Origin: Octopus sinensis
Taxonomy: Eukaryota
NCBI RefSeq assembly: GCF_006345805.1
Contig: NC_043011.1
Span: 3,224,001 to 3,288,000, forward strand
DNA: 64,000 nucleotides
Reading direction: 5' to 3'
Shown here: positions 1,131-51,979 of the stretch, one piece after another
How the letters are laid out: every line of letters begins with the position of its first letter
How positions within the stretch are numbered: the first letter of the stretch is position 1
Notes under the pieces: model-generated
Seen by the model: the letters and a program-made list of their open reading frames with translations, nothing else
Told to the model about the DNA's origin: nothing
The model's database searches: none
Program-made: the position numbers and the translations under genes

Positions 1131-2712
1131 ACACACGCACACACACACACACACACACACAGATAGATAAAATCATAATCCTATAACATGTCCTTCTCTA
1201 CGCTTGTATGGATTAGATGGATTTTTTTTAAAGCAGATTTTCTATAGCCACATCCCTTTCCTGTCGTCAATCCTCACCTGTTCCCAAGCAAGGTAGTATT
1301 TCTCCATGACCAAACACATTTTTGCAGAATACTGGAAATGAATGCCATTGCTTGTATGTCAGACACAGTCATTTTACTACTATCATGCAATATCAAGAAA
1401 AAGAGATACATACACTCACTCTCACACACATACTTATATAAATATACAAGACAGGCTTCTTTCAGTTTTCATTTGCTAAGTTTATTCACTAAGCTTTGGT
1501 CAACCTGGGGCTACAATAGAAGACACTTGCCCAAGGTGCCACACAGTGGGACTGGATGTGGAATGATATGGTTAGGAAGCAACCTTCTTACAGTTTGCTT
1601 CTACTGGAAAGAACAGATTCTGTTGTCAGGAAGTCTTTCTAATGCTAATTTGCAATATGCTTCCACATGAATGTTCATGGTTAAAAATGCAATCAGTGGC
1701 AGGGGCTTATAATGTTTTAGTGAGAAGTCTTGAAAATGAAATCTTTAAAACTGAAATCTTTCAAAAGGCATCATTAAATTGGTGTGAACAATGGATTAAC
1801 AACTCATTATATTAATTAATTAGTCCAAACTTACATCTCACGATTTCAAGTACCTCTATACAGCATAAATTACATCAGCTCTAACCCCTTAACTCTTTTA
1901 AACTGAACTGCTATCCTATACAATTATATAAAGGGAGTAAAGCAGTCGTAATTTATGATGCACGGAAGCATTTAAAATTCTAAAATCTAGGTCTAGACTA
2001 ATTAATAAATATAATGAGTTCTTGATGCATTGTTTACCCCAATTTAATGTAATCCTTTTACAAATTCCATTTAGCTCGTTATGAAATTAGATACACGCGT
2101 CTATTGACTGCGTTTCAGTTTTCACTGCTTCTGTCATTCTTCTCTCATCTTTCCATGCTTGTAGTCCTTCAACCCTTTTATCCTTTTTAAAAGTAATCGA
2201 TCCCTTTCTAGAATATTAATCATCCACGTATCTTACAGATTACCATTTCAATCTTTTAACTTTCTTGTTTAGCTATTTACTGATTCAGTACATTCTAATA
2301 ATTTTACTATATTACCATCTTATTTATATTTTATTATACATGCATACATGCATGTGCACATGCATGCTTATATACACATGTACATATAAATGAATATGTA
2401 TGTGTGTGCATGTGAATGTGCACATGTTCGTTCATATTTGTGAGGGCATGTGTGCACTCATATACAGATGTGCATACTTGCATCAATACAGACATGAACA
2501 CAAAACCATATGAGCACGTCCACACACCCACATATACAACTAAAATCTTTGCAAACACTGCTTCTTCTCACTTCCCCTCCAACAACTCAATTTCCTGTCC
2601 GCCACGTGGTTGAGTTCCTGTTCACCCTACAGTATTCTCCAACTAAATGTTGAAGACTAGCATCATGCTTAAAACTTGGAGTACCAATGAATTTGAATGA
2701 AACTGCTTTGAT

Positions 2713-2750
<38 letters not shown>

Positions 2751-2801
2751 ATACACACACACATATATATATGTTCATATATATATATATATATATATAT
2801 G

Positions 2802-2876
<75 letters not shown>

Positions 2877-2892
2877 ATATAATATATATATA

Positions 2893-3723
2893 CACAGGTT
2901 GCAGTGAATACACTATTGTCTCAATTATGCAAAAATGAAAATAACACTGACATCTCATTTTAACAGATATATTTACCAAAATTACATCAAAATATCTAGA
3001 AATACTAATCAGTAAATTTAATAAAATCACCATTGGCTTCAGCAACAACCTCCAGATGACTTTGGAATCTCTTGCAACTCTTCTGGATGGTTTCCTTGTT
3101 TAAGTTGGTGAATGCTGCCATAATCCTTGCCTTCATCATTGGTGTTACAAGGAGTTTTGTTTGTCTGTCACTCAACTGCGTCCCACACATAATAATCAAG
3201 AGGGGGGCTGCAGTCTGGGGAGTTAGGTGGCCAGATTTTAGGGGTGACACGGTTGCCACAATTATCTGACAGCTATGACTGGGTTCTCCTGTTTGATGCA
3301 GATTTCTGTTCCAAAAGATAGGGTCTTCCAGCAGTCATCCTCTTCCAGGCACTTGATGTAGGCTTCCATGCTGAGTTTGAGGGAAGATGAATGGAAGCAT
3401 AACAGCATCATCAATAGTGATCACTCCAAACACTGTGATGTTGACTGGATGTTTGATTTTTATCACTCTCAGTACATGTCTTCAGACTGACACCCAAGCA
3501 CTTTGAAATGTTGATATTGGAGCTTCAGGCATGAACGCCAAGCATTACAGCATGTTGTTACCAAATTTCTGGCAGAGTGAATTGCGTCTTGGAGCTGTTG
3601 TTCTCATATGCAGTGCCCAACTAACTCTACTATACTGTGTAGTTGACAAAATAAAGAACAAACAATGCACATGTGTGGAATCAAAAATATAAAATGGCGA
3701 CAATTTACCCATCGCTCCCTGTA
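2893..3723 (-). mobile_element. Decayed Tc1/mariner-superfamily (DD37D/maT-like) DNA transposon
   Basis: Minus strand encodes WPPNSPDCSPLDYYVWDAVER..KARIMAAFTNLNKETIQKSCKRFQSHLEVVAEANGDFI; degenerate TIRs at 2893-2920 and 3700-3723. Confidence 0.8.
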
Positions 3724-3766
3724 TTCACTGCATATTCACTGTATATATATACAAACATATATATAC

Positions 3767-3803
<37 letters not shown>

Positions 3804-3841
3804 GAAAGAAGGTTTGAAAATGCAATTTAAAAAATGTTTAT

Positions 3842-3886
3842 TTACTTTACCGGTTTCACTCTTTGGAAAAAGATTGTCAAAAGTAA
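3842..3886 (-). ncRNA. Minimal type-I hammerhead ribozyme, U3-A8 variant (inverted copy)
   Basis: Reverse complement of 4673-4717. Confidence 0.72.
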
Positions 3887-4672
3887 CATGTAGAAGTTTG
3901 GTTGCGTTAATTATTGGTTGTTACAAATTGCTACATTACATATATACAGTCTTTGGTAACAGGGACATATTAAGGACATAAAAAAGTTTAACAAGTTCCT
4001 TGAAATATTGGGCACAAAAGACTACTACATAAATAATCATTCTCAAGGACATGCTTGAAGGAGAGACAAAAAGGGTAAATTCTTTTCAGTTCCACATTAC
4101 TCCTCCTTTCCCCCAACCAAACACACCTACTGTGTCCCTTGAAATAGATAATATTCTTTTATGTTACCATGGTGGACAGGTCAGTTTTAGCTTCACTACT
4201 ATTATAATGTAAACCTTTTTGAACTCATAATATTCTGTACGTGTATACCAATATTTACTGAACTTTTTTAATAATTCCTTCTGGAAATTATCTTGAGAAT
4301 ATATAATATATTTGTTGTAATCTTTTGTGCCCATTATTTCAATGAGCTTGTTAAACTCTTTTCTATTCTCAACATGCTCTTGTCACCAAAGAATGTATAT
4401 TTATATGGATTATAGTACTCTGTGTCAACCAATATTCTGTGCATGTTTGAATATACAGATACAATACCAATACCAATATCAATTCCTTCTGGAAACTATC
4501 TTAAGCATGTCCTTGAGAATGATTATTTATGTAGTAATCTTTTGTACCCAATATTTTAAGGAACTTGTTAAACTTTTTTATGTCCTTAACATGTCCCTGT
4601 CACCAAAGACTGCATATATGTAATGTAGCAATTTGTAACAACCAATAATTAATGCAACCAAACTTCTACATG

Positions 4673-4717
4673 TTACTTTTGACAATCTTTTTCCAAAGAG
4701 TGAAACCGGTAAAGTAA
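4673..4717 (+). ncRNA. Minimal type-I hammerhead ribozyme, U3-A8 variant
   Basis: TTACTT-TTGACAA-TCTTT(TTCC)AAAGA-GT-GAAA-CCGGT-A-AAGTAA; 6-bp stem I, GUA cleavage triplet. Confidence 0.72.
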
Positions 4718-4816
4718 ATAAACATTTTTAAAATTGCATTTTCAAACCTTTCGTATATAATTCCACTCGTGCGGTACCCTACAACTCCAATTTGTTATAT
4801 ATATATATATATATAT

Positions 4817-5465
4817 GGCCTGTGCCAGGGGCGTAACCAGCCCACTTGTGCATACCTTTTCCTTCTTTGGACACTAAACTCTGCTTGCGAAGACTTGTTG
4901 AGGCAAGTGAAGTCAAAATCAAAATCAAAGTGAAATTAGATGACGGGCACGAGCACCATACGAGCGTGGTCGTTGACAGAGCGGCTAACTGGCTTCCGTG
5001 CCAGTGGCACATAAAAGGCGCCATTCGAGTGTGATCATTGCCAGCTTCGCCTTACTGGCACTTGTGCACCGTGCTAGCAGGGTGCTAAGAGCACCATCCG
5101 AGCATTATCATTCCCAGAGCGGCTAACTGGCTTCCATGCCAGTGGCATGTAGGAGGCACCATTCGAGCGGGATCGTTACCAGCATCACCTTACTGGCACC
5201 TGTGCTGTTGGCATGTGTAAAAAATTTGAGCGAGGTCATTGCCAGTACCGCCTGACTGGCCCCTGTGCCGGTGGCACATAAAAGCACCCACTGCACTCTC
5301 AGAGTGGTTGGCGTTAGGAAGGGCATCCAACTGTAGAAACTCTGCCAGATCAAGACTGGAGTCTGGTGCAGCCATCTGGTTCACCAGCCCGCAGTCAAAC
5401 CATCCAACCCAAGCTAGCATGGAAAGCGGATGTTAAACGATGATGATGATGATGATGATGATGAT
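4817..5465 (+). mobile_element. (GAT)n-tailed retroelement 3' UTR (RTE-type), copy 1 of tandem duplication
   Basis: Internal GCCAG..ACTGGC repeats; ends GCATGGAAAGCGGATGTTAAACGATGATG. Confidence 0.75.
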
Positions 5466-5613
5466 GTATATATATATCATCTTCACAAATATTTTCTCCA
5501 GAATTATTTGCTCCGTATATATTAAATATATATATATATATATGAATATATATATATATATTTATATATATTTATATATATTTATATATATTTATATATA
5601 TATATATATATAT

Positions 5614-6262
5614 GGCCTGTGCCAGGGGCGTAACCAGCCCACTTGTGCATACCTTTTCCTTCTTTGGACACTAAACTCTGCTTGCGAAGACTTGTTGAGG
5701 CAAGTGAAGTCAAAATCAAAATCAAAGTGAAATTAGATGACGGGCACGAGCACCATACGAGCGTGGTCGTTGACAGAGCGGCTAACTGGCTTCCGTGCCA
5801 GTGGCACATAAAAGGCGCCATTCGAGTGTGATCATTGCCAGCTTCGCCTTACTGGCACTTGTGCACCGTGCTAGCAGGGTGCTAAGAGCACCATCCGAGC
5901 ATTATCATTCCCAGAGCGGCTAACTGGCTTCCATGCCAGTGGCATGTAGGAGGCACCATTCGAGCGGGATCGTTACCAGCATCACCTTACTGGCACCTGT
6001 GCTGTTGGCATGTGTAAAAAATTTGAGCGAGGTCATTGCCAGTACCGCCTGACTGGCCCCTGTGCCGGTGGCACATAAAAGCACCCACTGCACTCTCAGA
6101 GTGGTTGGCGTTAGGAAGGGCATCCAACTGTAGAAACTCTGCCAGATCAAGACTGGAGTCTGGTGCAGCCATCTGGTTCACCAGCCCGCAGTCAAACCAT
6201 CCAACCCAAGCTAGCATGGAAAGCGGATGTTAAACGATGATGATGATGATGATGATGATGAT
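5614..6262 (+). mobile_element. (GAT)n-tailed retroelement, copy 2 (identical, 797 bp offset)
   Basis: Identical ORF translations at 797-bp offset (4846 vs 5643; 5239 vs 6036). Confidence 0.8.
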
Positions 6263-8720: not shown

Positions 8721-9274
8721 TTCTAGAGAAAAGACATGAGATCCTGGAAGGTGTCGCTTCCAACTCTGGAGCTGAAAGTTATATCAACCACCAAACAGGA
8801 TGCCACTATATTGCACCAAAGATCTTGTCCTTGCCATCTAGAGAATGGACATAATACTGTAACAGTTTAGGTTTCAAAGACCCAAAGCTTTTCAACACTC
8901 TGCCAAACAACCTCAGAGATCTGAAAGGTGTAGATGCAGATGTTTTCAAAGATCATATGGACAAATTATTATCTGATGTCCCAGATGAACCCACATCATG
9001 GTAGAAAATGTGAAGGAGAGCAACTCTGTCCTACTCACTACTCCACTAGAAACAATTCTGGAAAGAAAGAGCTGAAGTGAGCATGAAATGAAAAGTAATC
9101 ACACTAAAGGTGATGCCCCAGCATGACCACAACCTTAGGCTAAAACCAGTAAAAGTAAAAAGTTAATAAAAAGTAAAAAGTGAACAATAATAACAACATT
9201 AATAATAATAGAAATAATAACAGTTTCAAATTTTGGTACAAGGCCAGTAATTGTGGTGAAGTAAGTAAATTGAT

Positions 9275-9665
9275 AACCTGGACGTTATCAAAGAAGCTTG
9301 AGAGGCGGTTGGATGGAACCTACACTCGCCTCCTTATGAGAGCTCAAAATCTCTCGTGGAGGTGCCATCCAACCAAAATGCAAATATATGGGAAACTACC
9401 ACCTGTGTCATCTCTTGTGAAAGGTAGGAGAGTCCAGTTTGCTGGACATTGTTGTAGAGCTGAAAACGAGGTAATCTCTACTCTTCTTCTCTGGAAGCCA
9501 TCTGCTTGCGATGCCAAAGGGCGCACACTCTCCTACCCTGATGTAATCTCCAGGGATACAGGCATCCAGCAAAAGGACCTCCGTAATGCCATGATGGACC
9601 GTGAAGTCTGGCGTAGCATGGTAAATTCCATTGTCTCGACCATGGTCGAACAATGATGATGATGA
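9275..9665 (+). mobile_element. 5'-truncated RTE-group LINE (C-terminal ORF fragment, (GAT)n tail)
   Basis: TWTLSKKLERRLDGTYTRLLMRAQNLSW...RRVQFAGHCCR...DREVWR; TSD AAGTAAATTGAT at 9263-9274 and 9666-9677. Confidence 0.88.
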
Positions 9666-9925: not shown

Positions 9926-10337
9926 AGGTGCAGGAGTGGCTGTGTGGTAAGTAGCCTGTCTATCAACCACATGGTTCCGGGTTCAGTCCCACTGCGTGGC
10001 ATCTTGGGCAAGTATCTTCTGCTATAGCCTCGGGCCGACCAAAGCCTTGTGAGTGGATTTGGCAGACGGAAACTGAAAGAAGCCTGTCGTATTTATGTAT
10101 ATATATATGTATATGTGTGTATATGTTTGTGTGTCTGTGTTTGTCCACCCTAGCATTGCTTGACAACCGATGCTGGCGTGTTTACGTCCCCGTCACTTAG
10201 CGGTTCGGCAAAAGAGACCGATAGAATAAGTACTGGGCTTACAAAGAATAAGTCCCGGGGTCGATTTGCTCGACTAAAGGCGGTGCTCCAGCATGGCCAC
10301 AGTCAAATGACTGAAACAAGTAAAAGAGTAAAAGAGT
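9926..10337 (+). mobile_element. SINE family A (tRNA-like head, internal TA/TG microsatellite, (GTAAAAGA)n tail)
   Basis: A-box-like TGGCTGTGTGG, B-box-like GGTTCAGTCCC; about 20 copies in window. Confidence 0.92.
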
Positions 10338-10539
10338 ATGCTGCCAAGACATTTGTGAAGTTTATGGTGAATGATGCTGTAGGTGAATCAATTGTTCGAA
10401 GGTGGTTTGCAAAATTTAAAGCTGGAGAGTTTAGTTTGGAAGATGACAGTTGCAGTGGAAGACCTTCAAAATTGGATGAAGATGTTTTGAAGGCAAAAAT
10501 CGAAGAAAACTCAAATATCATAACTAGAGAACTTGGAAG

Positions 10540-10735
10540 TTTAGCACACCAGCTGAAATGCTTAGCAGTATTTCTTCTGTCTTTACATTCTGAGTTCAAA
10601 TTCTGCCAAGGTCAACTTTGCTTTTCATCCTTTTGGGGTCGATAAATTAAGTACCAGTTTCATACTGGGGTCGATCTAATTGATCGGCTCCTTCCCCACC
10701 AAATTTCAGGCCTTATACCTTGAGTAAAAAAAGAA
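10540..10735 (+). mobile_element. SINE family B
   Basis: GAGTTCAAATTCTGCCAAGGTCAACTTTGCTTTTCATCC core. Confidence 0.8.
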
Positions 10736-43585: not shown

Positions 43586-43800
43586 GTAGAAAATCCAAAA
43601 AAGAAGAACAAACACAAAAAACATCAACGCAAGGAAGTGGTACATGTAAAGTATTAGCAGACATGCAGGGAAGGAAAGAAAGATGGTTTAATGGTTGAAG
43701 CAGATGGTCTTTTTGGGAAATAGAGCAAAGTCCAACAGAAGGGAAGACGGAGGAAGAAAATCGTCAACGATTCACATGTGGTTTCATTTTGAAATAACTG
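43586..43800 (-). mobile_element. Decayed copy of the 59445-59606 PLE-type terminus
   Basis: Shares AATCCAAA..AAGAA, GGAAGGAAAGAA..GGTTTAA and GAAGGGAAGAC.GAGGAA; adjacent to (TA)n. Confidence 0.5.
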
Positions 43801-44054
43801 GAAGGGAATGAGTGTAACAGGAGAGTGTAACAGAAGGAGGTATGTGTGTGTATGTTGTATGTATGTGTGTGCGAGTATGTGTATGTGTGCATGTGTGAGC
43901 ATGTGTATATGCATGTATGTGTGTGCTTGTGTATGTGTACTTGTATATGTGCATGTGTATGTGTGTGTGGATTATATGAATGCTCCTGTGTGTGTGCGTG
44001 AGTATATGTTTGCATGTCTGTATGTGTGTGTGAATATAGGGTTGCTGCTCACAT

Positions 44055-45025
44055 TGCCTCCCCTCGGAAAGTTTGTGAGGAGCCCATTGACCCATTTTGC
44101 TGACTTTTCTGATAGCATGCAGGTGTTGATGAATGGTTGAATAACCAAATCCAAGCTTCTCTGCTAGTTCCTCAACAGATACGATGGGATTTTGTTGCAC
44201 CAGAGTTTACAGGACGTCCTCATTGCGCACAACAGATCTTCCAGCATGAGGCTTATCATCTAGGCTGTACTTTCTAGCTCAGAATTTCTGGCACCACTGT
44301 TGACACTAGCTTACACTTATTGTCCAATCCCCATATAATATTCCTCACACTTTCCACTGCATTGTTACCTTTACTGAACTCATAAAGGAAAATATGCCGA
44401 AGTTGCTTCTTTGTCATTTCCATTATAGCTTTAAAAGAATAACTGTTAAAATCGAACTGCACTCTTCAAAAAACTTGCACTAAGATTAAGGACGAGGTAA
44501 GATTACTACCTACTTTTAGAACAAGTTGATGCAGATAGTTTATCCCATCCCCTTCTGACTTAAATTCATGCAATTGAAAAAAATGCATAGGCGCAGGAGT
44601 GGCTGTGTAGTAAGTAGCTTGCTTACCAACCACATAGTTCCGGGTTCAGTCCCACTGCATGGCACCTTGGGCAAGTGTCTTCTACTATAGCTTCGGGCCG
44701 ACCAAAGCCTTGTGAGTGGATTTGGTAGACGGAAACTGAAAGAAGCCCGTTGTATATATGTATATATATGTATGTGCGTGTGTGTTTGTGTGTCTGTGTT
44801 TGTTCCCCTAGCATTGCTTGACAACCGATGCTGGTGTGTTTATGTCCCCGTCACTTAGCGGTTCGGCAAAGAGACCGATAGAATAAGTACTGGGCTTACA
44901 AAGAATAAGTGCCGGGGTCGAGTTGCTCAATTAAAGGTGGTGCTCCAGCATGGCCGCAGTCACATGACTGAAACAAGTAAAAGAGAGAAAAGAGAGTAGA
45001 GAGCATTATTTATGTGTATCTAAAT
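44055..45025 (-). mobile_element. 5' half of a mariner transposon with nested SINE A
   Basis: MTKKQLRHIFLYEFSKGNNAVESVRNI; QQNPIVSVEELAEKLGFGYSTIHQHLHAIRKVSKMGQWAPHKL. Confidence 0.88.
44589..45003 (+). mobile_element. SINE family A
   Basis: Family match. Confidence 0.92.
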
Positions 45026-45279: not shown

Positions 45280-45310
<31 letters not shown>

Positions 45311-45313
<3 letters not shown>

Positions 45314-45977
45314 AAAAAAGGTTTGAAAATGCAATTTAAACGATGTTTATTTACTTAACCGGTTTCACTCTTTGGTAAAAGATTGTCAAAAGTTACATTT
45401 AAGGAAACATTGAATAATATGGGTTCAAAAAAAGTTTTTTACATAATTGTCACATTGAATATTATGCATTCAAAAAAGTTTTTACATAATTGTCACATTG
45501 GATATTATGGATTCAAAAATGTTTTTTTATACATAATTGTCACATTACATGTATAAATATAGTGTTTGGTAACAGAGAAGTTCAATAGTGTGATGAGAAT
45601 ATTTGGGAAAATTTGGCAGAAAAGGATAAAACAAATATATTATTGGGAATTGGTTGCGTTAATTATTGGTTGTCGCAAATTGTCACATTACATGTATATA
45701 TATACAATCTTCGGTATATATATACAGCCTTTTGACAGCAAAAATTAAAATGGATTTTTTATACATCTCAGAATATTTTAAGTACAAGGCGAGAATATGT
45801 TTTTACTGACCTGTTGGTATTAGCAGAAAGGCTGAACTGAGAGAACAGAGGAAGTAGCCAATGTGGTGTATACTTCCCCTTTATGCATGAATGATTTTGG
45901 GGTTATCAGGAGGTTAGTATGCGGGTGTGAATAGATGTGTCCGTGCCCGCTGGTCAGATAGCGTCTGTTTGTCACAC

Positions 45978-46017
<40 letters not shown>

Positions 46018-46201
46018 CAACACACACACACACACACATATAGTAAACAAACACACACCACATACAAACAACACACACACACACACAGAACACACACACC
46101 CACACACAACGCACCCACATATATCACATATACACACAGCACACAAATATAATATGTATCTATATATAACATACACAGATATATAACACACATACACACA
46201 C

Positions 46202-46236
<35 letters not shown>

Positions 46237-47011
46237 CACACGCACACATACATACGTAATATAAATATCACACAAATACACCTAGCATATATATACACAC
46301 ATACAATACACACATACAGCATGTAAGTAATATACATACACAATATATGCATGCAATATACATACGCAGTACATACATATAATATATATATATAGACAAT
46401 GCATATACATATATACACATATACATATAAATAGTGTTTACATACACATACATAGATGTACCACATATACACAAATACACATACATACAACGCATACACA
46501 TACACGTACGCATACATATAATATATACACACACACACACATAACATACATACACAATGTATACATATATATACACGCAATGCACATACATGTATTCATG
46601 CATATAGCACACCTACAATATACATATATACACTGCACACATACACACACATATATACACTTAATTGTACACATACATATACAATACACATACATACAAT
46701 ATACATATACACAATGCGCATGCAAATAATGTACATGTTTATACACACATAAACAAGCAAATAAATATACACACACACACATACACACATACACATATAT
46801 ATATATATATACACACATACATACATACATACATGCACATACATATATTTTTTCACACACATACACATACATATATATATATATAAAAAATTCACCCCCC
46901 CCCCACACAAATTACAACCTATAGCGTACACACTCAAATATATCTCTACATGCCGCACACACACAAACAAAGTACTAACATATACACACATACCATGCAT
47001 ATACACACACA

Positions 47012-47047
<36 letters not shown>

Positions 47048-47125
47048 TTAAAAACAAATACACATGTAAATACATACATACGTACATAATGCTCACACAC
47101 ACACACACATACACACACACCCGTA
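45311..47125 (-). repeat. Left inverted arm of PLE (inverted copy of 3' UTR/pLTR)
   Basis: Reverse complement of 49567-51244; joins the RT ORF at CACACCCGTA|ATAAT. Confidence 0.93.
45353..45393 (-). ncRNA. Minimal type-I hammerhead ribozyme, U3-A8 variant (inverted-arm copy)
   Basis: Exact reverse complement of 51162-51202. Confidence 0.7.
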
Positions 47126-49200
47126 ATAATATCGACGAATCAATGGTCTGTAACAAAAGCAACTATAATCCCATAAAAGGCAAAAACAAAACCTTAGACA
47201 AATTTTGCGATTACATCTCCAACTTCCCTTATGGTGAACTCCCACAACCTAAACTCAAACCGAACACCAGTAAAAGAGAATGGGAAATCATCCATACGCT
47301 ACGAGACAATCATGACGTCACAATAAAGGAAGCTGATAAGGGTAGTACGGTCGTTGTTATGAATACTGAGCAATATAAAAACTCTGTATCTCTCCTTTTA
47401 GAGGATACCACATACTACGAAAGAGTAGTCGACTACCAGCAATCCAAAACAATGACCAATCTGAAGGCACTCATTTACCAACACCGGAATGACTTGACAG
47501 CAAAGGAATGCGACTACATTACTAAATTTAATTGCAAAACCAGCACACTCTATGGGCTTCCAAAAATACACAAGAGTCAAATTATCACAGAAGCTTGCAA
47601 AAAGTCCACTTCAACCTGCATCACTATACCACATCCCACTGATCTCAAACTGAGACCAATAGTGGCAGGCCCAAGTTGTGAAACACACAGACTTAGCAAC
47701 TTTATAGATATCATCTTAAAGCCAATACTGAAACACATTCCAAGTATTGTAAGAGATGACCTGGACCTATTAAAGCATCTCCCCAACATGCCGATAAAGA
47801 CACCTTAATCGTTTCTTTTGATGTTATTAATCTTTACACCACAATCCCACATGAATTTGGACTGGAAGCCATTAAATTCTGGCTGGATAAATATCCCAAT
47901 GAGATCCCGGAAAGAATTAAAAAAGAATTCATAATTGAGGGCCTCAAATTTATTCTGCAAAACAACTTCATGTATTTCCACAACAACACTTACAGACAGG
48001 TCTCAGGTACTGCAATGGGTACGAAAGTTGCACCTACCTATGCAAACCTGGTGATGGCCTACCTGGAATCACATATCTATGAAAAATCCAAATATAAGTA
48101 CGGCCAGTCTTTCCACAAATACCTGTTGGAGAACTGGAAACGCTACTTAGATGATTGCCTCATCCTATGGTCCCACACACTCGACCAACTTATAGACTTC
48201 AAAAACCTTATCAACAGTGTAAATAACAACATTCAATTCACAATGGAATATAGTCAGGACCAACTCCCTTTTCTTGACATCCTAATCATTAAAAAAGGCG
48301 TCAACATTGAAACTGACATCCATTACAAACCCACTGACTCTAAACAATACCTTCTATTCACCTCCAATCACCCAAAACACACAAAGACAGATATCCCCTT
48401 CAACCTAGCGAGAAGAATCTGCACTATTGTCTCAAATGACACAACACGAAATAGAAGACTCCGGGAACTAAGGGCAATTCTTCTCGAAAGACATTACCCG
48501 GCATCACTAGTAGACAACGGAATAGAACGGGCCAAATCAATCAACATTCAAGACCTTCGAAAACCCAAACACATCCACAGTACAGTCAATAGCCTCCCTT
48601 ATCTCTCAACACACAACCCAAGGAATGCAGAAGCTTACACTATTATATACAACAACATTCCACAACTAAATCAAGACCCACGCCTGAAAAAAATACTGGC
48701 AGCTCATAAAATAATAAAAAGTAAGAGACAACCTAAATCCCTAAAAAGCCTCCTCACCAATGCAAAATTACACAACACAAACCCACCGCCCACCATCAAA
48801 AAAATGTGGTCGCCCCAACTGCAAGACCTGCATCCACCTCATTGAGGGATCATCGTACAAGTTCCACTCGGGACACACATTCATCATAAAAAATAATTTC
48901 ACGTGCGCATCAAAAAATTTACTCTACGTCATAAGGTGTGAAGGATGCCACGAAGATTACATAGGGCAAACGAGCCTTACCCTCAGAGACAGAATGACAG
49001 TTCACCGACAACAACTGAGGGACCCCTCCACAAGACAGATACCACTAAGTGGACACTTAGACCTTTGTGCACACAATAAGTCCCCCAAATTCTTAGTCTT
49101 CCCACTATACCAATGCTCGGACAACACCACAGACCAAACACGAATAAATAAGGAAAGTAATCTTATTCAAAAATACAGACCACAACTAAACATACTCTAA
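47121..49200 (+). pseudogene. PLE reverse transcriptase + C-terminal GIY-YIG endonuclease (Neptune/Naiad-type with Cys-rich linker); 5'-truncated, two 1-bp frameshifts
   Basis: Motifs IKEADKG, YGLPKIHK, LRPIVAG, SFDVINLYT (frame after ~47790), GTAMGTKVAPTYANL, RYLDD, LPFLD, YKPTD..HP, CGRPNCKTC, LYVIRC..C..YIGQT..RMTVH. Spread over ORFs 47089-47808, 47970-48845 and 48760-49200. Confidence 0.95.
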
Positions 49201-49385
49201 CATACCCCCTGGAGACACATCCAGAGCAAGCACACAGGGACGCGTGCACGCTCACAGCATATCGTGCGGGCGGGCACATGCGTGCATCGGCACGCATAGG
49301 ACACACTAGCGGGCATTGACCGCACACATACGTGGCATGCACACGCATGCATTATATATATGTAGGTGATGTATGTGTGTGAGTG

Positions 49386-49419
<34 letters not shown>

Positions 49420-49566
49420 ACGTTGTGTGTGTGTGTGCGCGGGTGTATATATATATGTGTGTGTGTGTGTGCACTGTGTGCGTGTGTGTGTATGTGTGTG
49501 CGTGCACGCGCGTTGTGTGTATGTGTGTGTGCACGTGTGTATATATGTGTGTGTGTGTGCACTGTG

Positions 49567-49639
49567 TACGGGTGTGTGTGTATGTGTGTGTGTGTGAGCA
49601 TTATGTACGTATGTATGTATTTACATGTGTATTTGTTTT

Positions 49640-49680
<41 letters not shown>

Positions 49681-49872
49681 TGTGTGTGTATATGCATGGT
49701 ATGTGTGTATATGTTAGTACTTTGTTTGTGTGTGTGTGCGGCATGTAGAGATATATTTGAGTGTGTACGCTATAGGTTGTAATTTGTGTGTGGGGGGGGT
49801 GAATTTTTTATATATATATATGTGTATGTGTGTGTGTGTGTATATATATATATATGTATGTGTATGTGTGTA

Positions 49873-49905
<33 letters not shown>

Positions 49906-50330
49906 GTGTATATATGTGTGTGTGTGTATGTGTGTGTGTGTATATTTATTTGCTTGTTTATGTGTGTATAAACATGTACATTATTTGCATGCGCATTGTG
50001 TATATGTATATTGTATGTATGTTATGTGTGTGTGTGTGTATATATATATTATATGTATGCGTACGTGTATGTGTATGCGTTGTATGTATGTGTATTGTGT
50101 GTATATGTGGTACATCTATGTATGTGTATGTAAACACTATTTATATGTATATGTGTATATATGTATATGCATTGTCTATATATATATATTATATGTATGT
50201 ACTGCGTATGTATATTGCATGCATATATTGTGTATGTATATTACTTACATGCTGTATGTGTGTATTGTATGTGTGTATATATATGCTAGGTGTATTTGTG
50301 TGATATTTATATTACGTATGTATGTGTGCG

Positions 50331-50380
<50 letters not shown>

Positions 50381-50548
50381 TTATATATCTGTGTATGTTA
50401 TATATAGATACATATTATATTTGTGTGCTGTGTGTATGTGATATATGTGGGTGCGTTGTGTGTGGGTGTGTGTGTTCTGTGTGTGTGTGTGTGTTGTTTG
50501 TATGTGGTGTGTGTTTGTTTACTATATGTGTGTGTGTGTGTGTGTTGT

Positions 50549-50579
<31 letters not shown>

Positions 50580-51244
50580 GTGTGACAAACAGACGCTATC
50601 TGACCAGCGGGCACGGACACATCTATTCACACCCGCATACTAACCTCCTGATAACCCCAAAATCATTCATGCATAAAGGGGAAGTATACACCACATTGGC
50701 TACTTCCTCTGTTCTCTCAGTTCAGCCTTTCTGCTAATACCAACAGGTCAGTAAAAACATATTCTCGCCTTGTACTTAAAATATTCTGAGATGTATAAAA
50801 AATCCATTTTAATTTTTGCTGTCAAAAGGCTGTATATATATACCGAAGATTGTATATATATACATGTAATGTGACAATTTGCGACAACCAATAATTAACG
50901 CAACCAATTCCCAATAATATATTTGTTTTATCCTTTTCTGCCAAATTTTCCCAAATATTCTCATCACACTATTGAACTTCTCTGTTACCAAACACTATAT
51001 TTATACATGTAATGTGACAATTATGTATAAAAAAACATTTTTGAATCCATAATATCCAATGTGACAATTATGTAAAAACTTTTTTGAATGCATAATATTC
51101 AATGTGACAATTATGTAAAAACTTTTTTGAACCCATATTATTCAATGTTTCCTTAAATGTAACTTTTGACAATCTTTTACCAAAGAGTGAAACCGGTTAA
51201 GTAAATAAACATCGTTTAAATTGCATTTTCAAACCTTTTTTCTT
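49567..51244 (+). repeat. Right arm of PLE (microsatellite-rich 3' UTR plus pLTR)
   Basis: Cryptic (TG/TA) region, then unique sequence from ~50580 including a ~44-bp x3 repeat (51005-51145) and the HHR. Confidence 0.93.
51162..51202 (+). ncRNA. Minimal type-I hammerhead ribozyme, U3-A8 core variant
   Basis: ACTT-TTGACAA-TCTTT(TACC)AAAGA-GT-GAAA-CCGGT-T-AAGT: stem I ACTT/AAGT, stem II TCTTT/AAAGA, palindromic stem III ACCGGT. Confidence 0.7.
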
Positions 51245-51279
51245 ATATAATCCCACTCGTGCGATACCCCACAACTCAA

Positions 51280-51315
<36 letters not shown>

Positions 51316-51317
<2 letters not shown>

Positions 51318-51548
51318 AGGTCATTGCCAGTACCACCTGACTGGCCCCCGTGCACTTGGCACGTAAAAAGCACCCACTACACTCTCGGAGTGGTTGGCGT
51401 TAGGAAGGGCATCCAGCTGTAGAAACTCTGCCAGATAAAGACTGGAACCTGGTGCAGGCATCTGGTTGCCAGCCCTCAGTCAAAACCGTCTAACCCATGC
51501 TAGCATGGAAAACAGACGTTAAATGATGATGATGATGATGATGATGAT
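51316..51548 (+). mobile_element. (GAT)n-tailed retroelement 3' end
   Basis: Homologous to 5232-5465. Confidence 0.85.
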
Positions 51549-51979
51549 ATATTTATATACATGTATAATGAGGGTAATAAATTGAATATTAATTTAATTA
51601 ACATCAATTTAAAACCAGTGGCCTAGCATATAACTATTTATATATTATACACTTTATTTATATACTATATAAAAATAAAAAAATGTTCTAGATATAGAAT
51701 ACTCTTCCCATCATACAAAATATTTTGATATGAAATGAATCACATTCTCAAAAACTACACCCACACACAATATGGTTTAGTGCACAGTTTTCATCTTACA
51801 AATTTCATAACATAACATGTCATATTACATGTTTGCTTTGCAACCTTAATAGCTGTGCCATTGTATACAAATTCCAGCATTGTTTCATTTATTAATAATC
51901 TTTTGGTAAACTTTGTAGCAAAAAACCATATCCTTAACTGTACACTCTTACACATTCTTCAGGATTTACAAAAAGAATT

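Follow-up and report, generated by a model that had tools for sequence, protein, structure and literature searches.

Palindromic insertions of a Neptune-like Penelope-like element in Octopus sinensis and the pairing of their tailed and untailed ends

The window analysed here is a stretch of 64,000 nt from the genome of Octopus sinensis (NC_043011.1, positions 3,224,001 to 3,288,000 of the forward strand), within which a real, young, 5'-truncated insertion of a Neptune-like Penelope-like element (PLE) is found. The insertion has the shape of a palindrome: an open reading frame (ORF) for a reverse transcriptase (RT) plus a GIY-YIG endonuclease is enclosed by two inverted arms, and only one of the two outer ends carries a short tail. 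Coordinates are positions within the window, arms were compared by alignment, and protein domains were assigned with Pfam cut-offs.

The palindromic insertion and its affiliation

45282..45311, no strand: left (TA)n target flank, its final six bases common to the internal TATATA of the element (site 1)
45312..47125, minus: untailed inverted arm of 1814 bp, a copy of the last ~1.8 kb of the element's 3' untranslated region (UTR), ending at site 1 (alignment)
45351..45395, minus: mirror copy of the hammerhead-like motif (alignment)
47124..47125, no strand: head-to-head arm junction with TA microhomology (sequence)
47124..49200, plus: 5'-truncated ORF2 with RT, linker and GIY-YIG (translation, Pfam)
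47335..47343, plus: DKG motif (translation, sequence)
48144..48155, plus: YLDD catalytic motif of the RT (translation, sequence)
48805..48831, plus: CX4CXXC linker with Neptune-type long spacer (compared by eye with the rows of PMC8557442 Fig. S2)
48925..49200, plus: GIY-YIG endonuclease, YVI..YIG and CCHH residues present (Pfam, translation)
49201..51243, plus: 3' UTR rich in (CA/TG)n and (TA)n, of which 49567-51243 is the portion duplicated in the left arm
51160..51204, plus: minimal type I hammerhead-like motif (alignment of relatives; PMC4209133)
51244..51286, plus: 43-nt tail, starting with TATATA (site 1) and ending at site 2 (sequence)
51287..51314, no strand: right (TA)n target flank (sequence)
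3803..4796, no strand: second palindromic insertion, of an older subfamily, with untailed left arm, tailed right arm and GUA triplet (sequence)

Alignment of the left arm with the right arm (49567-51243, 1677 bp) yields 1634 matching positions, 24 mismatches and 229 columns with gaps; a block of ~140 bp is missing from the right arm, and microsatellite lengths differ between the two. A preliminary description, made from the sequence alone, had called the unique parts of the arms identical, which is true of their unique 3' part (no substitutions at 634 compared positions) but not of the arms overall. Its account of the remaining anatomy stands: the extra tail of about 40 nt occurs on the right end only (43 nt, none on the left), both flanks consist of (TA)n, the left arm joins the ORF where CCCGTA mirrors TACGGG, with the last TA forming a 2-nt microhomology shared with the ORF, and the truncated ORF between the arms encodes RT (PF00078) and GIY-YIG (PF01541) domains that pass the Pfam cut-offs. 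The same architecture had been claimed for 3802-4796, and the insertion found at 3803-4796 indeed repeats this layout in an older subfamily, with arms of ~260 bp that are 95.8% identical.

Relative to a natural full unit of 5882 bp (L046), the window copy retains unit positions 1608-5925 in forward and 4050-5882 in inverted orientation, and is devoid of both ORF1 and the slippery site as well as of ~65 codons at the start of ORF2. Its ORF is spread over three frames, with breaks near 47784 and 48798, both at homopolymers. Since neither break is present in family contigs from four public runs, they represent assembly errors or changes confined to the window copy. Lacking both ORF1 and an upstream direct pseudo-long terminal repeat (pLTR), the window copy is likely a dead end. 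Were a read-through transcript to form the ~1.7-kb double-stranded stem predicted in the preliminary description, the ribozyme in sense orientation would be base-paired to its own antisense counterpart, and such palindromes could supply long double-stranded RNA in octopus; among the public sequencing runs listed for the element, none is of RNA.

The presumed youth of the element is supported by its ORF part, which shows 0.3-1.7% substitutions relative to each of 18 further copies that were aligned. The best named homologs come from Octopus bimaculoides (80%), Argonauta and bivalves. As in endonuclease-containing (EN+) PLEs, a PLE-type RT (DKG, YxDD) is followed by a C-terminal GIY-YIG domain with CCHH residues, and the inverted arms with the 43-nt tail correspond to the pLTR and tail of that group; arms exceeding one unit occur at L045, L046, L145, L146 and L149. 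The preliminary description had named a Cys-rich linker as a trait of the Neptune and Naiad clades, and the CX4CXXC with long spacer found here matches, by eye, the Neptune rows of PMC8557442 Fig. S2, unlike the short-spacer Nematis rows and the CxCX5C of Hydra. Terminal ends enter (TA)n in nearly all cases among the rows listed, and Neptune-type linkers accompany microsatellite targets (PMC8557442). The label Neptune-like, applied here provisionally, draws on linker and target; the accompanying quick tree holds unlabelled relatives only. Naiad was excluded, as it has an N-terminal GIY-YIG and no canonical hammerhead, whereas the endonuclease found here is C-terminal.

With the Neptune clade as described in PMC8557442 the octopus family shares the RT with DKG, the C-terminal GIY-YIG with CCHH, a CX2-5CxxC long-spacer linker, the (TA)n target, pLTR tandems, the inverted 5'-truncated copy, the one-sided tail and a hammerhead motif. 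The coding organization differs. Canonical EN+ PLEs are called single-ORF in that work, whereas five families of this genome have ORF1 and ORF2 in separate frames, and in full octopus units an ORF1 of ~447 codons overlaps ORF2. A killifish Neptune (PMC12602865) has two ORFs that do not overlap, in contrast to those of the octopus family.

Palindrome, tail and ribozyme are published PLE traits, and the headline anatomy of the locus is largely known. Its novelty had been overstated in the preliminary description: at their 5' end PLE insertions often carry a 5'-truncated copy in inverted orientation, together with a tail of 30-40 bp on one side (PMC8557442), the same anatomy was reported in a rotifer, where self-priming was proposed (PMC3846280), and minimal hammerheads in pLTRs, including the U3-A8 variant and pairs on opposite strands, have been described as well (PMC4209133). 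In vitro, both strands are cleaved and extended by a PLE of Anolis, whose tail lies between two sites of RT initiation (PMC11167929). The origin of the tandem and inverted repeats and of the one-sided tails has been named an open problem (PMC8557442, PMC11167929). A genome with hundreds of young insertions converts this known picture into counts and adds a near-strict pairing of tailed with untailed ends in two families, a single haplotype per locus and symmetric arm lengths.

Paired end points and arm lengths across the genome

Two fixed points mark the ends of the family's insertions: one directly precedes an internal TATATA, and the other, 43 nt further on, precedes an internal (TA)5. Exact patterns for these ends returned 115 untailed and 96 tailed ends genome-wide, of which the 100 untailed and 85 tailed exact-match ends listed on contigs C1-C25 were used for the pairing count. 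Among these 185 ends, 40 of 41 outward-facing pairs combined a tailed with an untailed end and none combined two untailed ends, where ~50% mixed pairs would be expected (p 1.5e-11). The one exception involves an internal pLTR, the real outer end of which is untailed. A sister family, with an ORF2 ~53% identical at the protein level, repeats the pattern: 32 of 34 outward-facing pairs were mixed (p 1e-8), both odd pairs again being internal pLTRs, in a count that drew on 100 of the 723 untailed and 68 of the 487 tailed ends, those on C1 and C2:1-65 Mb. As both end types also occur alone, an independent choice of start sites would mix them.

The palindrome is also the majority form. An initial search for the 3' end gave 1131 candidates, and 40 of them were scored; 37 loci were fetched for the best tailed matches and four of these were dropped (one duplicate, two with internal junctions only, one at a contig end). 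Inverted arms were found at 26 of 33 tail-bearing insertions, six others being one-armed and one ambiguous, in line with the earlier suggestion that this is the standard integration mode of the family. Eight of 20 untailed ends that seemed single by exact pattern turned out to be paired, and by our estimate some two thirds of untailed ends have a partner. L104 and L115, which lie on different chromosomes, have the same junction and the same tiny tailed arm and represent a duplication or an assembly copy.

Neither type of arm is consistently the longer. Of 55 junctions mapped, 23 had a longer tailed arm and 21 a longer untailed arm, one of the latter being L049, while in 11 the arms ended within 20 bp of each other, against a permutation mean of 1.2. 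Overlaps of at least 1 nt were found at 33 of these junctions, blunt joins at six and filler at 16. The arms of one locus also share their haplotype: across 37 loci, the difference was 0.46% between arms of a locus versus 2.8% between loci, and recurrent variants gave 230 shared versus 19 discordant calls. At L119 both arms carry the same internal deletion.

Proposed priming by both target strands and its alternatives

On each strand of the sequence, the flank leads into the antisense of an arm. As far as sequence can tell, this arrangement is the geometry of two target-primed cDNAs. We lean slightly towards a reading in which both nicked (TA)n target strands prime reverse transcription on one RNA, at two TA tracts 43 nt apart. 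What was observed in its favour are the two fixed end points overlapping the TA tracts of the element, the pairing, the shared haplotype, the symmetric arm lengths and the short-homology junctions. The endonuclease would cut both target strands, one of which would prime at the TA tract before the tail and the other at the TA tract after it. The trailing RT could then displace the leading cDNA from undegraded RNA; PLE reverse transcriptases are not known to have RNase H. Microhomology or filler would link the two cDNA ends, followed by fill-in synthesis. Where just one of the primers was extended, a one-armed insertion would result, and equal arm stops may arise when both enzymes run off one 5' end. 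A single RNA with two TA tracts, each serving one primer, would thereby account for the pairing, the shared haplotype and the equal stops.

Similar events are known from L1. In L1 twin priming, the second primer anneals far upstream, so that the two parts do not overlap. Both target strands likewise act as primers and the inverted part is joined by microhomology, but in the octopus element the two starts lie 43 nt apart and the 3' end is duplicated. The Poseidon element PAc of Anolis carolinensis (PMC11167929) belongs to a different clade; its tail lies within the ORF and its RT start is without homology to the cut DNA, whereas the tail of the octopus element forms part of the ORF1 leader, and each of the two end points overlaps a TA tract. 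No paper on twin priming in the PLE mechanism was found, judged by title, in the open-licence literature.

Several points weigh against this reading. A shared haplotype could also reflect gene conversion, assembly polishing or two RNAs derived from a single master, and equal-length arms, some of them centred on small palindromes (TTAA, TGCA, TCGA), also fit a fold-back. In sister family E the end homology to (TA)n is only 1-3 nt, and in Anolis the site of RT initiation has no homology to the DNA that is cut (PMC11167929). Locus L049 is tailed on both arms (it was wrongly counted as tailed plus untailed among the 55), and L085/L086 of an older subfamily also holds a tailed-tailed pair. The 55 mapped pairs were largely picked from tailed and untailed pattern matches, so only the counts of 40/41 and 32/34 test the pairing rule fairly.

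Alternatively, two RNAs from the same master could be used, one per subunit of an asymmetric dimer with different start sites. A dimer is predicted for the Anolis protein (PMC11167929), and pairing and shared haplotype would be explained without strand displacement. We nonetheless regard this as unlikely: a fixed asymmetry has to be assumed in addition, and on its own the model leaves unexplained the 11 of 55 pairs whose arms end within 20 bp of each other.

Self-priming, for which published models exist (PMC3846280, PMC8557442), would let the first cDNA fold back and template the second arm, with the endonuclease trimming the tail from one end at resolution. Equal-length arms on small palindromes and a few private variants common to both arms speak for it. 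However, simple fold-back of a tailed target-primed cDNA demands a shorter untailed arm, yet 20 of 54 tailed-untailed pairs have an untailed arm that exceeds the tailed one; an untailed first strand is unable to template a tail, and random trimming of a free palindrome would not yield the near-strict pairing of either family. Fold-back copying is thus improbable in our judgement. The preliminary description had invoked a template switch or a second priming event to copy the 3' UTR in inverted orientation; second priming fits the data, whereas the arm lengths contradict fold-back copying of a tailed cDNA.

That the palindrome is an assembly fold-back artefact seems very improbable: although no read or contig spans the locus in four runs, all of them yielding short-read contigs, and homopolymer frame breaks suggest long-read errors in the assembly, the arms differ by the ~140-bp block and by the tail, dozens of loci, belonging to three or more subfamilies or families, repeat the layout with common fixed end points and different flanks, a second palindrome lies in the window, and the same layout has been published for other animals. 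The counted pairing rule and the shared template restrict the models of PLE integration and make the question testable in the existing in vitro system.

Hammerhead-like motif, ORF1 and possible circular templates

A ribozyme had been placed near each end of the insertion. A minimal type I motif is indeed present at 51160-51204 and mirrored at 45351-45395, but an Rfam scan of the window detected no hammerhead, returning 79 weak matches (microsatellite-driven microRNA models and one small nucleolar RNA). The motif has a U3-A8 core, U.U in place of G10.1-C11.1, a palindromic ACCGGT helix III and a GUU triplet, with a predicted cut after 51198. In an alignment of 12 rows, comprising the window family, three sister families and three outside relatives, U4 G5 A6, A9 and GAAA are invariant (12/12) and position 17 is A, C or U, never G. 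The 3-8 pair is U-A in nine rows and C-G in three, a count that is not independent, as the scans that collected the rows required a 3-8 pair. Helix I shows two-sided changes in 6/6 pairs, with 87.9% of cells paired versus 35-48% in slid controls. The pair G10.1-C11.1 is G-C in seven of the 12 rows and kept by the sister families, and U.U is confined to the window family; because of this replacement, self-cleavage appears doubtful in the window family. Folding the motif on its own gave no hammerhead fold (z -0.07), as expected for a minimal dimer-type motif, and lends it no support. The minimal hammerhead of the Schistosoma PLE Cercyon (PMC4209133) is alike in its U3-A8 core, palindromic helix III, short helix I and paired motifs on opposite strands, but has a highly conserved G10.1-C11.1 pair where the octopus family has U.U.

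In the young subfamily, 12 loci have an arm whose truncation lies within a 39-nt stretch, and at seven of them it falls in the four positions around the predicted cut (p 6e-5), in a set classified by eye after the first three had been noticed. In older subfamilies this hotspot was not replicated: ~10 true truncations fell in three positions versus ~15 in seven control positions (p 0.19), classified by eye and with unequal anchors. The clustering at the predicted ribozyme cut is thus suggestive only. At L372 (G000:C19:12393350-12394150) and L130, two independent arms stop exactly at this cut and continue into the same 8 foreign bases, which are absent from the element and possibly stem from a template jump to another RNA; in L372 they are followed by ~470 bp of unrelated sequence and then (TA)n. 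The locus L119 (G000:C1:146216900-146220800) is a deleted derivative in which unit position 2618 is joined to 5857, the deletion also being present in its pLTR. It has no ribozyme yet was inserted in the tailed-untailed form, so the ribozyme was not needed in cis there. In L366:6538-7700 (oriented), three tandem repeats of ~555 bp, each with a canonical CUGAUGA hammerhead core, resemble a non-LTR retrozyme array beside a PLE end.

In full units, the tail sequence runs on into (TA)5 and then into the ORF1 leader, and ORF1 overlaps ORF2, which lies in the -1 frame, at T TTT TTA. The heptamer (U UUU UUA in RNA) is present at this overlap in five families of the genome. The sequence thus has the hallmarks of a programmed -1 frameshift, a conserved X XXY YYZ heptamer within the overlap and ORF2 in the -1 frame; no indel was seen at the slippery site in contigs of the four runs. 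In three sister families ORF2 reaches its first Met after 67, 164 or 190 codons; in the window family an ATG overlaps the ORF1 stop, and reinitiation is possible. Among outside relatives, T TTT TTA occurs in L185, L186, L190, L191 and L197 and T TTT TTG in L260; these form one clade in a quick-mode tree whose frameshift labels miss L349, L360 and L260. In a different clade the site reads G GGT TT(T/C), and in many further relatives none of this kind is seen. The 75 nt downstream of the slippery sites fold at -0.9 to -16 kcal/mol with no shared structure, in predictions of nested folds. The legend to Fig. 1 of PMC8557442 states that in PLEs ORF1 can be set apart by a frameshift with a pseudoknot; a paper on programmed frameshifting in PLEs was not found in the open-licence literature.

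ORF1 has a conserved helical core, and its structure model is all-helical (mean predicted local distance difference test score 74). It gave no Pfam match above cut-off and no Atlas match; four homologs were found. Annotating such families as a single ORF of ~750 amino acids misses this conserved protein.

A stem-loop with its 5' arm in the tail (51255-51261 in the window copy) and its 3' arm ahead of the ORF1 start pairs in five of five families or subfamilies, with weak z-scores of -2.6 to +0.4 against simple shuffles. It includes the second start site and is complete only where the 3' UTR precedes the ORF1 leader, as it would on a circle. Among tandem copies the far end is visible in six, and in four of these (L045, L145, L146, L149) it is untailed, as it is in L066; the tailed ORF-bearing arms of L047, L128 and L143 share haplotypes with two of these untailed-ending copies, L145 and L146. 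Untailed masters with tailed progeny fit the circle proposed in PMC4209133, but unsampled masters explain them equally well, and this is not proof. Perhaps, then, the template for a duplicating twin priming is a single ribozyme-cut and re-ligated circular RNA, coupled to a gag/pol-like ratio of ORF1 to ORF1-RT-EN; this combination is tentative and on the whole rather unlikely. Circles would yield long and more-than-unit arms, while unligated monomers would give mini-palindromes stopping at the ribozyme cut; ORF1 would be made by default and the ORF1-RT-EN fusion through -1 frameshifting. If true, this would be a third retrotransposon integration mode, read directly from the genome.

At least four further young PLE families occur in the genome (L350-L367), several copies having an open ORF2 of 769-811 codons, and the families checked carry U3-A8 hammerheads. 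Four ORF2 matches on one strand in G000:C6:12789826-12845380 lie 17-20 kb apart, perhaps owing to local tandem duplication. A single-protein scan of genome_contigs returned no matches; PLE-bearing contigs within bacterial metagenome-assembled genome records of that collection (L259-L317) are likely host contamination. Elsewhere in the window, 10154-10645 and 43784-44206 hold mariner-like transposase fragments, the former with a Mos1 helix-turn-helix match slightly below cut-off. A frame of 159 codons at 9177-9656 had no Pfam match and resembles the 3' end of an RTE-type long interspersed element. Repeats of ~230-310 bp that resemble short interspersed elements, with 86-94% identity, are abundant (44588-44990, 51315-51550 and many other places), often lie beside (TA)n and account for most of the other inverted pairs in the window.

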